A stretch of 62,776 nt of DNA, filler included, from Dirinaria sp. TL-2023a (GCA_051941275.1; 35 parts of 35 records of this genome joined end to end with filler, not necessarily neighbours in it), one strand, 5' to 3'; positions 47,477 through 54,004 are shown, numbered from the whole stretch's first letter. The notes: a model not told the origin generated them from the sequence alone. A program made the numbers and translations.

Positions 47477-48025
47477 TGTAAGGTCGTATGCGTCGGTTAT
47501 CCGCCGGCGCAGTACTTGTGTGAAAGACGTGGCAGTGTAATAGATTATATGACTACCTGATACTGTAGTTTCTGCTAGAACTAATCACTAAGAACTCCTC
47601 TCGAAAGGGTGAGTGATTCTCTATACTTGTCAAAGACCCAACCTTGGTTAGATAGGTTTCCCAATGGTAAAAGTCCCGGCAGCGCCAAAAGACTAACTAA
47701 ACCAAGTCAAAGGACTTGGTGCCTATCTTACTACTTGGTTAGTTTCCAGGGTCGTAACAATACTTAACCGCGAGCGTTAACATTGCCTCACCGTGACGAG
47801 CCTCGCGCTGACGAGTCACGAGCGCTCGTAGACACAATGCTCTATAAGCGTCAATCGCTCACTGACTCCTAGTTAGTCTCGAGATTCAACCTTCCGACGC
47901 TGGCTCCTAGACGGCGCTAGCCATGCTTCAGACCCCGAAGGATTGCCCTTGGGCACCCCCGGCTGCCAAGCGGCGCTAGCCTGCATTGGTCAATATATAC
48001 CAATGTATCAGGTATCACTGTTACA
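47477..48025. mobile_element. Solo LTR of the 412-bp family carrying a nested insertion
   Basis: TGTAAG...GTTACA termini; TSD GCTTC at 47472-47476 and 48026-48030. 549 - 132 - 5 = 412 bp, equal to the copies at 53018 and 53459. Confidence 0.95.
47628..47759. mobile_element. Nested 132-bp solo LTR
   Basis: TGTCA...TAACA termini; TSD ATACT at 47623-47627 and 47760-47764. The empty site CTCTATACTTAATCGCG is seen in the copy at ~53601. Confidence 0.95.
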
Positions 48026-48390
48026 GCTTCTTGCATCAATCGCACGAATCAACGTCTCGAATGCAGTCGCGTTTTCTTAAACACGCGATGCACGAAAAAT
48101 CTTTCTTCTTTATAATTTGTTAGCATCTCGATCTCGCGTCGCAGAGACGTCAGCGTTTACAAATTGATCGAAAAGTCGTCATCTTCAAAAAAAAAAAAAA
48201 GAAGCAGAGAGAGATGTGATAATGTTGATGATAATATTGATGAGCGCTGACTCGCAATCGACGTCAGCAACGCATCTCTTCTTACTCTCAAATTGAGACA
48301 AAACAATACTTACAGATGATGATTGTGATGTTCTCAAAGGAGAACGCTGTTAATAAATCTAATATCAGTGCTTGAAGAGGAGTACTTATC

Positions 48391-48611
48391 TGTTACGAGC
48401 ATGCATCTGGTATACTACCTGGAGCAACACCTCCCAGGGTTCTCAGGGGTAATGCGCTAACCCGATCGGGGTGTTTACCCGACATCCGCACACACGCATA
48501 TATATCCGGGACCCTCTATTGTATCTAGTTTTTCTTCTTCTTCTTTCCTCAGTGATAATATTCTTAATTAATCATATCTGCATTGACCAGAGCTCTGCAT
48601 CGGTTCTAACA
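48391..48611. mobile_element. LTR of the ~215-bp family (inverted copy), followed by a decayed Gypsy RT fragment
   Basis: Reverse-complement homology to 30944-31156. Downstream reads LKKVDIQANIEKCEFYV (=GxQADIxKCEFHV). Confidence 0.85.
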
Positions 48612-50573
48612 ATTTAAATTCTAAAACAACTAAAAAAAGTCGACATTCAAGCGAACATCGAGAAATGTGAATTCTACGTATAAGAAATTAAGTATTTAGA
48701 GTTTATNNNNNNNNNNNNNNNNNNNNNNNNNNNNNNNNNNNNNNNNNNNNTTAATTAATTAANNNNNNNNNNNNNNNNNNNNNNNNNNNNNNNNNNNNNN
48801 NNNNNNGTCTATCGCTATATGGAGAGACAGAAATGGAGTCAGAACAGCGTTCAAACTGAAGCGATAAAGTGAAAAATACGCAGCGTCACCATTTCAAAAG
48901 CAAATAGCGAATACCAGTACGCTAGACTCAGGAAGACGATATGGAACTTCTGCAGATCCACAAAGAAGCAGCCAATAAGAAGGTCTTAGACAGGTTTCTA
49001 CGTTTGATGTGGACAAGATTTGTCACAAGAAAAGCTGAAGCAATACGTATTGGCTCGAGGGGAACTTCTAGATGGGTCTAACCGCCTTAATTTCGCAGTA
49101 GCTTTAGAGACTGCATTCATTTCTCAACAGAACCGTGCTGAGTGGAGTCGGTACTGAAAACTTGGGTTCATATTGACCAAGACAGATCTGGGAGCTATTT
49201 TGTTAGGACTCGTCGGCCGCTGCGCAGTCACGGCAGCTGAAATGGACACCCGATAGCTGGCTGGCAGCATACCGTCGAAGAATTTCGCAAGGCTCCTATG
49301 GCACACTGCATTGTTCTACAGAAATAGAACATATTGTCCCTCATAGTCAACTGAAAACGCTGCACGGCATACTCTCTCCGCCACGAAAACCAAGTTCTGA
49401 AAGCGAAATAAAGACACTGGATGGTAATTGGGTTAAACCACATTTATGGTCTATTCAGCGGTAAAACCTATCAAGTATGTGTGAATTGCGTGCTCCTATG
49501 AACCTCTGCTAAGGTACGAGTACAAGCACTAATTAGTTAATACGAATTTCGTACCGTGTTTGACAAGACATTGAATGGAAAAGAGTTCCAGGGCGCAATG
49601 ATTTACGGATGAGCGCTACATTTTCGACCGCGAGATGAAGAGGAAAGTTCAGAACTTGCGGACCAAGAAGATGAGAAAGAAGGAGATATTTTGGTTTCGC
49701 ATGATGCTTTTGCAAGTTGGAGTTCAGCTTTCATCTGCCTTGATGTAATGACTTGCAATTTTGCTTGCTGAGAATTATGTTTATAAGACACACGCTTTAC
49801 CTGCTCTCTAAGAATACCCACATTGAATTTTTGATAAGCAATACATCCTAATTTCAAAGACATAAAGCTGGCCGGTGGCTGAAATTCGTGGTTTGCGCTG
49901 AATATAAGATCATATATGTTTCCTGGAGCGACAAAAGAATTCGCTTGCAGCATCATCAATGCCAGAACACTAGCCCACTCATCATCTAGACACCAATTTA
50001 TTTCCCGCTCAACGAGTGACAATGCTTGTGAGATCTGAGCACTGATCTTTCGAGAGGATCACGGATTTCACATTAGCCCAGGAGATGAGATTGATCTACG
50101 CTGCTTTGAGGAGCGAGATGTTAGTACCTTGTCCACACATGTCTGGGATTGATATTATCTCCAATGAGGGTCGGCAGTATCTCGTGTCAGGAGCAGTTCA
50201 TGTTAGCATTTCTCTATGCTTTTGTCTCGTTAGATATGAGAGAAGATGGGATTCTTGCGTTGCAGAGGATCGCTGCGAGATGCAAGAGCCGACTCTCATC
50301 GAGCTCATATATCTTAGTTCATTGGTAGCGGAGGAGGAGAAAGCTTTGCGTACATGTATCTGGCATCTGGTCTCGGAATTTAGTTGATCCACGCTAGGGC
50401 GCGGCCCGAGATCCGCTCCAGATCCCTGCGGGTTCACGTCGTCCTCTGCCTGCCTGGACGAACTTCCAATTTCNNNNNNNNNNNNNNNNNNNNNNNNNNN
50501 NNNNNNNNNNNNNNNNNTTAATTAATTAANNNNNNNNNNNNNNNNNNNNNNNNNNNNNNNNNNNNNNNNNNNN

Positions 50574-52239: not shown

Positions 52240-52339
52240 NNNNNNNNNNNNNNNNNNNNNNNNNNNNNNNNNNNNNNNNNNNNTTAATTAATTAANNNNN
52301 NNNNNNNNNNNNNNNNNNNNNNNNNNNNNNNNNNNNNNN

Positions 52340-52482
52340 AAGAAGAAGAGAAGCTAGATACAATGGGGGTCCCAGATATATACGCGTGCGGGTGTCGCGT
52401 ATCCCGATCGAGTTAGCGCATTACCCCTGAGAACCCTGGGAGGTGTTGCCCCAGGTAGTATACCAGGTGCATGCTCGTAACA
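52340..52482. mobile_element. LTR of the ~215-bp family (partial copy)
   Basis: Close match to ~31011-31156, ending GCTCGTAACA. Confidence 0.9.
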
Positions 52483-53017
52483 ATCATTTACAAATCATAA
52501 CTCTGTTTCTGATTGTCGCTTTTCGAGTGTCGCATGAAAATTCGTGAATGAGTTCGAAAGCTCTAATCATTGCGACAATTTGTTTTGCAATTCGTCTATT
52601 CTTATATTAGATTTGAGTCGCTTGTCTGATTATGAGACTAATCAGTAGAGTCACTCATGATTAGCATGACTCTGTAATCGTTTCGTTCGAATGTGAAAAG
52701 TCTCAGTCTGTTCTTTAAGAACTACAATATCATCATGAATTGCTCGTGTTAATATGTTTATCTTATCAGTGATCATCTTATTTAGATCTAAAATCATACT
52801 CACAGTAAATCCTCGATTAAAGCGCAATTGATGAAAGATTTTAGACGTTCTATTCGCTTCAAAGTATTCTCAATCTTCGATTTATTAACTTTTTACATCA
52901 AGACTGACTTAATCTGATCTCTCTTTCTCAAGAACGATATTCGTCTCATCATTCTTTCTAGAACATCTTTAAATTAATCTAATGACTCATTATATAATTC
53001 TAACATCCTAATCTGAT
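52483..53017 (-). pseudogene. Hypermutated fungal NLR fragment (SesA/HeLo-like N-terminus to the start of NACHT)
   Basis: Minus strand reads NKSKIENTLKRIERLKSFINCALIEDL and QNKLSQ*LELSNSFTNFHATLEKRQSETEL*FVND (=WLxxPDPSTNxxxAxxKRQPGTGxWF). Confidence 0.75.
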
Positions 53018-54004
53018 TGTAAGATCGTATACGCCGTTTACCCGTCGACGCAGTACTTGTGTGAAAGACGTGGCAGTGTAATAGATTATATGACTATCTG
53101 ATACTGTAGTTTCTGCTAGAACTAATCACTAAGAACTCCCCCCGAAAAGATGAGTGATTCTCTGTACTTAAACGCGAGCGTTAACATTGTCTCATCATGA
53201 CGAGCCTCGCGCTGACGAATCACGAGCGCTCGTAGACACAATGTTCTATAAACGTCAATCGCTCACTGACTTTTAATTAGTCTCGAGATACAATCTTTCG
53301 ACGCTGACTTCTAGACGGCGCTAGTCATGCTTCAGACCTCGAAGAATTGTCTCTGAGCATCTTCGACTTTCAAACGGCGCTAGTCTGCATTGATCAATAT
53401 ATATCAATGTATCAGATATCACTGTTACATTTGTTCTCTCTTCTGAGCACTGATCTTCTGTAAGGTCGTATGTGTCGGTTACCCGTCGACGCAGTACTTG
53501 TGTAAAAGACGTGGCAGTGTAATAGATTATATAGCTACCTCATACTGTAGTTCCTGCTAGAATTAATCACTAAGGACCTTTCTCGAAAAGGTGAATGATT
53601 CTCTATACTTAATCGCGAGCGTTAACATTGCCTCATCATGACGAGCCCCGCGCTGACGAATCACGAGCGCTCGTAGACACAATGCTTTATAAGCGTCAAT
53701 CGCTCACTGATTTCTAATTAATCTCGAGATTCAATCTTTCGACGCTGATTTCTAGACGACGCTAATCATGCTTCAGATCTCGAAAAATTGTCTCTGAGCA
53801 TTCTCGACTGTCAAACGACGCTAGTCTGCATTGATCAATATATATCAATGTATCAGATATCACTGTTACATTTGTTCTCTCTTCTGAGCACTGATCTTCT
53901 GTAAGGTCGTATGTGTCGGTTACCCCGTCGACGCAGTACTTGTGTAAAAGACGTGGCAGTGTAATAGATTATATAGCTACCTCATACTGTAGTTCCTGCT
54001 AGAA
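53018..54004 (-). mobile_element. Tandem array of 412-bp LTRs (53018-53429, 53459-53870, 53900->54004) separated by identical 29-bp spacers
   Basis: Direct alignment of the copies; spacer TTTGTTCTCTCTTCTGAGCACTGATCTTC occurs twice. Strand inferred from the PPT-like tract. Confidence 0.92.

Follow-up and report, generated by a model that had tools for sequence, protein, structure and literature searches.

A window of 62,776 bases (the whole stretch of DNA analysed here), made up of 35 contigs, contains tracts in which C has been converted to T on both strands, predominantly at a C that precedes a second C (CpC). The reading that we favour, with a probability of roughly 60%, is that these tracts record a genome defence of the repeat-induced point mutation (RIP) type, which acts on repeated or duplicated DNA and targets the 5' C of CpC. 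The spectrum, direction and strand symmetry of the mutator, its confinement to a tract with a sharp end and its speed relative to background divergence were demonstrated, and CpC hypermutation is also present in two or more other fungi represented by metagenome contigs. A first-pass annotation of the window had proposed a RIP-like, strand-symmetric CpC mutator, and this core reading gained independent support from a pair of public metagenome loci, L001 (intact) and L005 (mutated), which are separated by 1,164 directional transitions, with 93% of the L005 mutations at CpC.

Within the window, copies of a long terminal repeat (LTR)-like sequence were compared over the 3' 265 nt of the repeat, with the C- or G-bearing state taken as ancestral in all window comparisons and the sequence context read from that state. 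Contig 27 (47035-48706) carries copy A, and the other copies, B, C and a partial fourth, are on contig 30 (52340-54004). The contigs (1,652-1,734 bp, ordered by falling size) are joined by spacers of the form N44-TTAATTAATTAA-N44, so that features crossing a spacer have no physical linkage; the repeats within the annotated span 47770-53870 are real, but the span is not one continuous piece of DNA, as it crosses several unrelated contigs. Copies A and C differed at 37 positions, of which 37/37 were transitions and 35 went from C or G in A to T or A in C, and copies A and B differed by 30 transitions and 3 transversions. Between A and C, the changed fraction was 26/33 at CpC, 10/38 at CpT, 1/44 at CpG and 0/32 at CpA (Fisher p = 3.6e-14, CpC vs rest), and between A and B it was 21/29, 7/39, 1/43 and 0/30, respectively (p = 1.9e-12). 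The annotated pattern for the LTR pair, with C>T at CpC, CpT as a minor target and CpA and CpG spared, was reproduced by the A vs C counts, and the individual changes that had been quoted (AACCTT>AATCTT, TTCCG>TTTCG, ACCCCG>ATCTCG, CACCCCCGG>CATTCTCGA and others) were all found in the A/B/C alignment.

Pooling 12 repeat pairs from the window, which overlap and hence are not independent, gave changed fractions of 46% at CpC (129/278), 13% at CpT (43/333), 6.7% at CpA (19/284) and 3.3% at CpG (9/271), so that CpA lay far below CpC rather than equal to or above it, the outcome against which the annotation had staked its claim. The 5' neighbour had a small effect in these pairs (12-21%). The tandem LTR copies were mutated and the dispersed copy A was nearly intact; an exact-pattern scan of the metagenome contigs with the LTR core returned 0 matches. 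As to the arrangement of the repeats, the units at 53014-54004 stand head to tail with a period of 441 bp (a 416-bp unit and a 25-bp spacer), an uncommon layout for LTRs. The 132-bp insert of copy A (47629-47760) is CC/GG-rich, absent from B and C, and matched in inverted orientation by the end of contig 26 (46839-46934; 96 nt, 98%), and it may be a small mobile element.

Base composition marked out 11 of the 35 contigs (c07, c10, c15, c18, c20, c26, c27, c29, c30, c33 and c34), close to the dozen or so estimated at first pass, with observed/expected ratios of 0.10-0.59 for CC/GG, 1.2-1.7 for TC/GA and 1.06-2.08 for CG. The ratio (CC+GG)/(TC+GA) was 0.07-0.34 in these contigs vs 0.47-1.22 in the other 24, with no overlap (Mann-Whitney p = 3e-6). 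TpA/ApT was 0.68 in mutated vs 0.72 in unmutated contigs (p = 0.51), and (CpA+TpG)/(ApC+GpT) reached 1.12 in the mutated contigs, where the available part of PMC3897900 gives a RIP cut-off of <1.03. Since TpA/ApT is unchanged, classical RIP indices see nothing here, as had been anticipated for TpA-based indices. Among trinucleotides in the mutated contigs, CCA/TGG, TCC/GGA and CCC/GGG were the most depleted and TCG/CGA the most enriched (TCG 1.61-fold).

Stretches with zero CC/GG adjoined normal inserts (24-26 per 200 nt) within single contigs; copy A itself carries 24-26 CC+GG per 200 nt, with none in the flanks on either side. Because mutated and normal stretches share one contig, the pattern is not the base composition of another organism. 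All inter-contig homologies of at least 100 nt (c10-c29, c18-c27, c18-c30, c26-c27 and c27-c30) were among mutated contigs. Saturated relics also enclose CC-rich, repeated islands of about 150-230 bp that belong to two families (17043-17242, 51774-51973, 30937-31136, 48391-48560 and 52340-52482); these islands were only partly mutated (CpC 27-39% between copies) and had no Rfam match.

The mutated contigs hold a LINE (long interspersed nuclear element) endonuclease fragment, a Gypsy integrase part with a chromodomain and a dynamin-family gene, all decayed (Table 1), in agreement with the annotated view that the signature marks LINEs, Gypsy elements and decayed host genes. To polarise the coding changes, the contig 15 frame was aligned with 13 intact homologues, and columns with at least 75% homologue agreement were scored. 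Conserved residues had changed at 12/20 Gly (8 to Asp/Glu), 9/12 Pro (6 to Ser) and 3/4 Trp (all to TGA), compared with 0/18 Ile, 1/23 Lys, 1/10 Tyr and 2/8 Gln, and the proposed codon signature (Trp TGG>TGA, Pro>Ser, Gly>Asp/Glu) was thus recovered with outgroup polarisation. These changes are what CC>TC and GG>GA produce at the codon level; RIP of the CpA type would give TAG/TAA stops. At the DNA level, polarisation with outgroups gave changes at 66/143 CpC sites in contig 15 vs 16-23% in other contexts.

The 13-homologue alignment was then used to retrieve related sequences among public metagenome contigs, yielding 80 loci (952,393 bp). A sliding scan of these loci found a CpC-type compositional signature in 49/1,783 one-kb windows, 36 of them in L005 and L058, which come from one assembly. 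L005 (JAABUW010000182.1) aligned with L001 (JAABVA010001777.1) over 13,864 bp with no gap, and the change from L001 to L005 comprised 1,173 differences: 622 G>A, 542 C>T and 9 others. The common direction of the differences indicates that L001 represents the sequence as it was before the event and L005 as it became afterwards, and the ratio of 1,164 mutator changes to 9 background differences points to episodic enzymatic hypermutation rather than slow decay. With L001 as ancestor and both strands counted over the first 13,150 bp, the mutated fraction by 3' neighbour was 67.0% at CpC (1079/1610), 4.3% at CpG (67/1576), 0.6% at CpT (10/1718) and 0.3% at CpA (5/1767), with Fisher p ~ 0 for the CpC specificity. 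Polarisation with outgroups gave 120/184 at CpC vs 6-11% elsewhere in L005, and 3-5% in every context in the intact control L001.

The 3' neighbour set the L005 rate over a range of 0.3-67%, whereas grouping by the 5' neighbour only gave 14-23% overall. Within CpC, sites preceded by T were converted at 84% vs 54-68% for the others, and the base after CC also mattered, with conversion at 84% for A or G, 64% for T and 28% for C. Conversion was nearly complete, at 96-98%, for TCCA (152/155) and TCCG (101/105), and fell to 20-41% at NCCC. In runs of C it was the next-to-last C that mutated, which explains the change ACCCCG>ATCTCG in the window LTR. Both strands were mutated in every 1-kb bin, at 54-83% of CC or GG targets, and the 542 C>T and 622 G>A changes bear out the annotated statement that the 5' C of CC mutates on both strands. 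No strand-coordinated clustering was detected in L005 (468 runs vs a null of 428.8 +/- 11.6).

Mutation density in L005 was even to about 12,900 and tapered over about 400 bp; the last change lies at 13,418, and all 60 CC/GG targets that remain after it are untouched. The mutated tract of at least 13.1 kb sits in a 133,879-bp contig with a normal flank that is 99.5% identical to L001. In its intact form, the L001 tract contains open reading frames (ORFs) for ankyrin, ubiquitin C-terminal hydrolase, Tc1/mariner transposase, bZIP and dynamin-like proteins, which are unrelated genes, and the process is indifferent to the type of its target, affecting retroelements, DNA transposons and host genes alike. 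As a side observation, L001:1-13150 may belong to a large segment of mobile or accessory DNA. The L005 frames gained 34 stops (31 TGG>TGA, 2 CGG>TGA and 1 CGA>TGA, with no TAA or TAG), and the commonest replacements were Pro>Ser (86), Gly>Glu (40), Glu>Lys (29) and Gly>Asp (27). From L001 to L005, GC content fell from 51% to 42% and observed/expected CC/GG from 0.95 to 0.30, and TC/GA rose to 1.57 and CpG to 1.25; this compositional end-state is the same as that in the window.

Other loci provided controls and variants of the pattern. The control pair L067/L070 differed by 115 transitions and 78 transversions, with 18 transitions at CpC, a spread over all four contexts and a symmetric direction, and other near-identical locus pairs likewise had ordinary spectra. 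No CpC excess relative to the family consensus was seen in the intact genes of L001, L002, L003 and L013. In L075:7000-9000 we found a canonical CpA-RIP tract (observed/expected CA/TG 0.07, TA 1.63, CC/GG 0.97), and CpC-type and CpA-type tracts can be separated by dinucleotide indices alone. Textbook CpA-type RIP was also observed in L022, L012 and L023.

A further case came from L002:14548-16564, which, compared with the intact L013:8718-10728, carried 317 C>T/G>A changes and 10 in the reverse direction. Its rates were 57% at CpC, 35% at CpA, 19% at CpT and 16% at CpG, with TCA about equal to TCC, so this fungus has either a broader enzyme or CpC-type and CpA-type processes together. An old relic in L058 (16900-21864) had observed/expected CC/GG of 0.13, CpG of 0.55 and CA/TG of 1.51, whereas the window relics keep CpG (1.06-2.08); the CpG loss and CA/TG gain in this relic suggest slow methylation-type decay after the main event. 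A Pfam search of read-through frames of the old L058 relics gave nothing usable. Two smaller observations belong to these records. Between L003 and L004 (99.9% identical), positions 14658-15316 hold a small TC/CC cluster with 8/12 transitions at CpC, too small to interpret, and AT-rich windows in L009, L003/L004 and L004 combine a low CC index with moderate CC/GG depletion (observed/expected 0.62-0.65) and were left unclassified.

We propose the following mechanism for a RIP-type defence directed at CpC. Tracts of repeated or duplicated DNA, whether LTR and LINE retroelements, a DNA transposon or duplicated host genes, would be recognised at the DNA level, with duplication as the probable trigger and a presumably premeiotic action. 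An enzyme would then convert C to T on both strands, almost only before another C, with an optimum at 5'-T-C-C-R-3' (the first C being the target) and with the next-to-last C of a run as its substrate. Repeated rounds could strip a tract of every CC/GG, leaving TC/GA-rich, CpG-retaining DNA of moderate GC content in which coding sequence would be destroyed through Pro>Ser, Gly>Asp/Glu and Trp(TGG)>TGA. The effector is probably a RID/Masc1-like C5-methyltransferase homologue with an altered reading of the 3' neighbour. More broadly, we lean slightly towards a lichen-associated ascomycete lineage possessing a CpC effector (optimum TCCR, >200-fold over CpA) that is either a re-engineered RID paralogue or a new double-strand DNA deaminase. 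The annotation had stated that no causal gene lies in the window, and a Pfam scan found no C5-methyltransferase or deaminase domain in 79 stop-to-stop ORFs of at least 90 aa from the 24 unmutated contigs, a set that intron-split or shorter genes could escape.

Several points weigh against this interpretation. The CpA preference that is the hallmark of described RIP is absent (5/1767 in L005; 0/32 between LTR copies A and C), and both the dependence on duplication and the identity of the effector are matters that we infer. A second copy of the L005 tract did not appear in the part of that record that was covered, and part of the window evidence comes from the overlapping pooled pairs. The partial mutation of the CC-rich repeated islands is unexplained; they may have inserted recently or be below the size needed for targeting. 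Secondary targets also differ among cases, being CpT in the window, weakly CpG in L005 and CpA (35%), CpT (19%) and CpG (16%) in L002, and more than one process may be superimposed across the three.

Among other explanations, we regard as unlikely, though the strongest competitor, a cytosine deaminase unrelated to RID (AID/APOBEC-like, or double-strand acting and of the bacterial-toxin type) that prefers CC and is aimed at transposon-rich or heterochromatic DNA. Several deaminases prefer TC, and the modest 5'-T preference in L005 (TCC 84% vs 54-68%) is reminiscent of them; known AID/APOBEC enzymes, however, read the 5' neighbour, whereas the dominant determinant in L005 is the 3' neighbour (67% at CpC vs 0.3-4% elsewhere), and the strand-coordinated clusters expected of single-strand deaminases are missing from L005. 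Editing of retroelement cDNA is excluded by the presence of a DNA transposon and host genes in the L005 tract. AID/APOBEC-type editing was accordingly rejected on three counts, namely the 3' rather than 5' neighbour, the lack of strand clusters and the inclusion of DNA transposon and host genes. What speaks for a deaminase from another side is that in vitro methyltransferase activity of RID went undetected according to the available part of a 2026 review (PMC13297926), which leaves the chemistry of RIP itself open.

Slow decay, in which a DIM-2/DNMT-like enzyme methylates CpC and 5-methylcytosine then deaminates spontaneously, appears very improbable. It could account for the small CpG excess in L005 (4.3% vs 0.3-0.6% at CpA/CpT) and for the L058 relic, on which methylation-type decay probably acted afterwards, yet 67% of CpC sites changed against 9 other differences in 13.9 kb, a rate ratio of >1,000 that is incompatible with spontaneous deamination, and the end of the L005 tract is sharp. 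Methylation followed by deamination of the MIP-like (methylation induced premeiotically) or CpG type was also rejected, with CpG at 4.3% vs CpC at 67% and 9 background changes vs 1,164. We give hardly any credence to the view that there is no mutator and that the CC-poor contigs stem from an organism of odd composition or from an artefact of assembly, sequencing or DNA damage by ultraviolet (UV) light. The window does combine many short contigs, its source is probably a metagenome-derived assembly, and lichen fungi are UV-exposed; nevertheless, mutated and unmutated segments alternate within single contigs, the differences between copies of a single repeat family fall almost exclusively at CpC, and the L005 tract lies inside a long contig whose normal flank matches L001. 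UV damage favours a 5' pyrimidine and CpT/TpC sites, whereas CpT was changed at only 0.6% in L005 and TCG and TCA were spared.

A RIP-type defence at CpC shares much with RIP as it operates in Neurospora crassa and other Pezizomycotina, where it depends on RID or DIM-2. In both, changes are C:G>T:A only, occur on both strands and follow the 3' neighbour; tracts extend over kilobases and stop sharply, apart from a little leakage; the targets include retroelements, DNA transposons and duplicated genes alike; and many changes accumulate on almost no background divergence, inactivating genes by nonsense and missense mutation. The context ranking of Neurospora RIP is CpA > CpT > CpG > CpC. Here, by contrast, the target in L005 is CpC (67%) with CpA at 0.3%, and the new L005 stops are only TGA (31/34 from TGG), never TAA or TAG. 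The product also differs, being TC/GA-rich and CpG-keeping with 30-47% GC rather than TpA-rich with very low GC. APOBEC3G-type editing likewise produces C>T in the CC dinucleotide, but the base that APOBEC3G deaminates is the 3' C of the pair, in single-stranded cDNA of one strand, whereas the present changes fall on the 5' C, affect both strands and extend to DNA transposons and host genes.

In the literature, described RIP prefers CpA and has CpT or CpG as its secondary signatures, as far as the available parts of PMC2621366, PMC4352252 and PMC12543289 show. A non-CpA C>T bias in transposons is likewise known, in the accessible text of PMC2621366 and PMC4352252, from TpCpG/CpG hypermutation in Pucciniomycotina and Ustilaginomycotina and from Tuber, whose CpG-biased transposon decay is methylation-linked; these processes destroy CpG/TCG, whereas TCG is spared here (0/70 in window pairs, 24/476 in L005). 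Canonical RIP in the lichen-forming fungi Cladonia rangiformis, Xanthoria and Endocarpon involves probably related hosts and also mutates transposon-rich compartments. It leaves AT-rich relics of 10-20% GC or index-positive regions with TpA/ApT of 1.47 (PMC12542154, PMC13486527 and PMC3897900, in the parts available), and the CpC tracts are negative on those indices. RIPCAL defines a CpC>TpC class and index, and the species covered in the accessible part of that work are dominated by CpA, CpG and CpT (PMC2621366). Similarly, the available text of Amselem 2015 gives only CpA, CpT and CpG signatures, tied to Dnmt1 subclasses (PMC4352252), and that of a 2025 survey of 1,239 fungal genomes describes a CpA preference shared by RIP-like defences (PMC12543289). 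Our search of openly accessible full texts turned up signatures of the CpA, CpT and CpG types only, and none of the texts found described RIP dominated by CpC, in keeping with the earlier remark that such a spectrum is atypical; a CpC target preference is therefore not reported for RIP in the literature searched.

The C-to-T chemistry of RIP and the basis of its dinucleotide preference have still to be resolved, and a natural system that takes CpC and spares CpA, together with a before/after comparison as clean as this one (1,164 mutations), offers a comparative handle on the effector. Standard detectors (TpA/ApT, (CpA+TpG)/(ApC+GpT), low-GC segmentation and AT-rich k-mers) would call such genomes RIP-free, whereas (CC+GG)/(TC+GA) splits mutated from normal DNA here without overlap. 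If the CpC effector proposed above exists, RIP is not bound to CpA, surveys by AT-rich k-mers or TpA indices under-count RIP-proficient fungi, and comparison of CpC-type with CpA-type effectors would reveal which residues determine the specificity and chemistry of RIP. An enzyme editing C in CC this selectively on duplex DNA would also interest base-editing work.

Table 1 Coordinates of mutated tracts, repeat copies and decayed genes in the window. Index, (CC+GG)/(TC+GA).
Feature	Position	Strand	Remarks
LTR-like repeat copy A	47473..48025	+	least mutated copy; termini TGTAAGG...GTTACA; 132-bp insert 47629-47760
LTR-like repeat copy B	53014..53429	+	first unit of 441-bp tandem array; mutated vs A
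LTR-like repeat copy C	53455..53870	+	second tandem unit; mutated vs A
Partial fourth LTR-like copy	53897..54004	+	ended by contig end
Saturated relic beside copy A	47035..47434	.	0 CC/GG in 400 nt; 42-47% GC; 43 CpG; 81 TC+GA
Decayed dynamin-family gene, contig 15	25519..27225	+	10 in-frame stops, 7 TGA
Decayed Ty3/Gypsy integrase C-terminal part (SH3_Tf2-1) and chromodomain, contig 29	50576..51614	+	
Decayed LINE endonuclease (Exo_endo_phos_2) fragment, contig 10	16444..16731	+	
Mutated contig c07	10977..12699	.	index 0.22
Mutated contig c10	16443..18163	.	index 0.14; unmutated CC-rich island 17043-17242
Mutated contig c18	30937..32635	.	index 0.14
Mutated contig c20	34534..36229	.	index 0.24
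Mutated contig c26	45263..46934	.	index 0.18
Mutated contig c33	57619..59272	.	index 0.10; CpG observed/expected 1.89
Mutated contig c34	59373..61024	.	index 0.07; GC 30%; CpG observed/expected 2.08

Elsewhere in the window, one or more families of LTR elements seem to have escaped the mutator, since an open frame of 335 codons in contig 31 (54758-55762) encodes a retrotransposon gag domain and has a normal CC/GG content. An Rfam search of the whole window gave 0 matches. The intact genes (BolA, amidoligase_2, CorA, an AAA_11/AAA_12 helicase, DUF7580 and fructosamine kinase) are typical of a filamentous ascomycete, and protein matches place the organism within the Pezizomycotina. The closest named relatives of the fructosamine kinase are lichen-forming fungi, at 62-71% identity, with other matches reaching up to 80%, and those of the dynamin-like gene are Candelina and Pycnora, at 51-58%.

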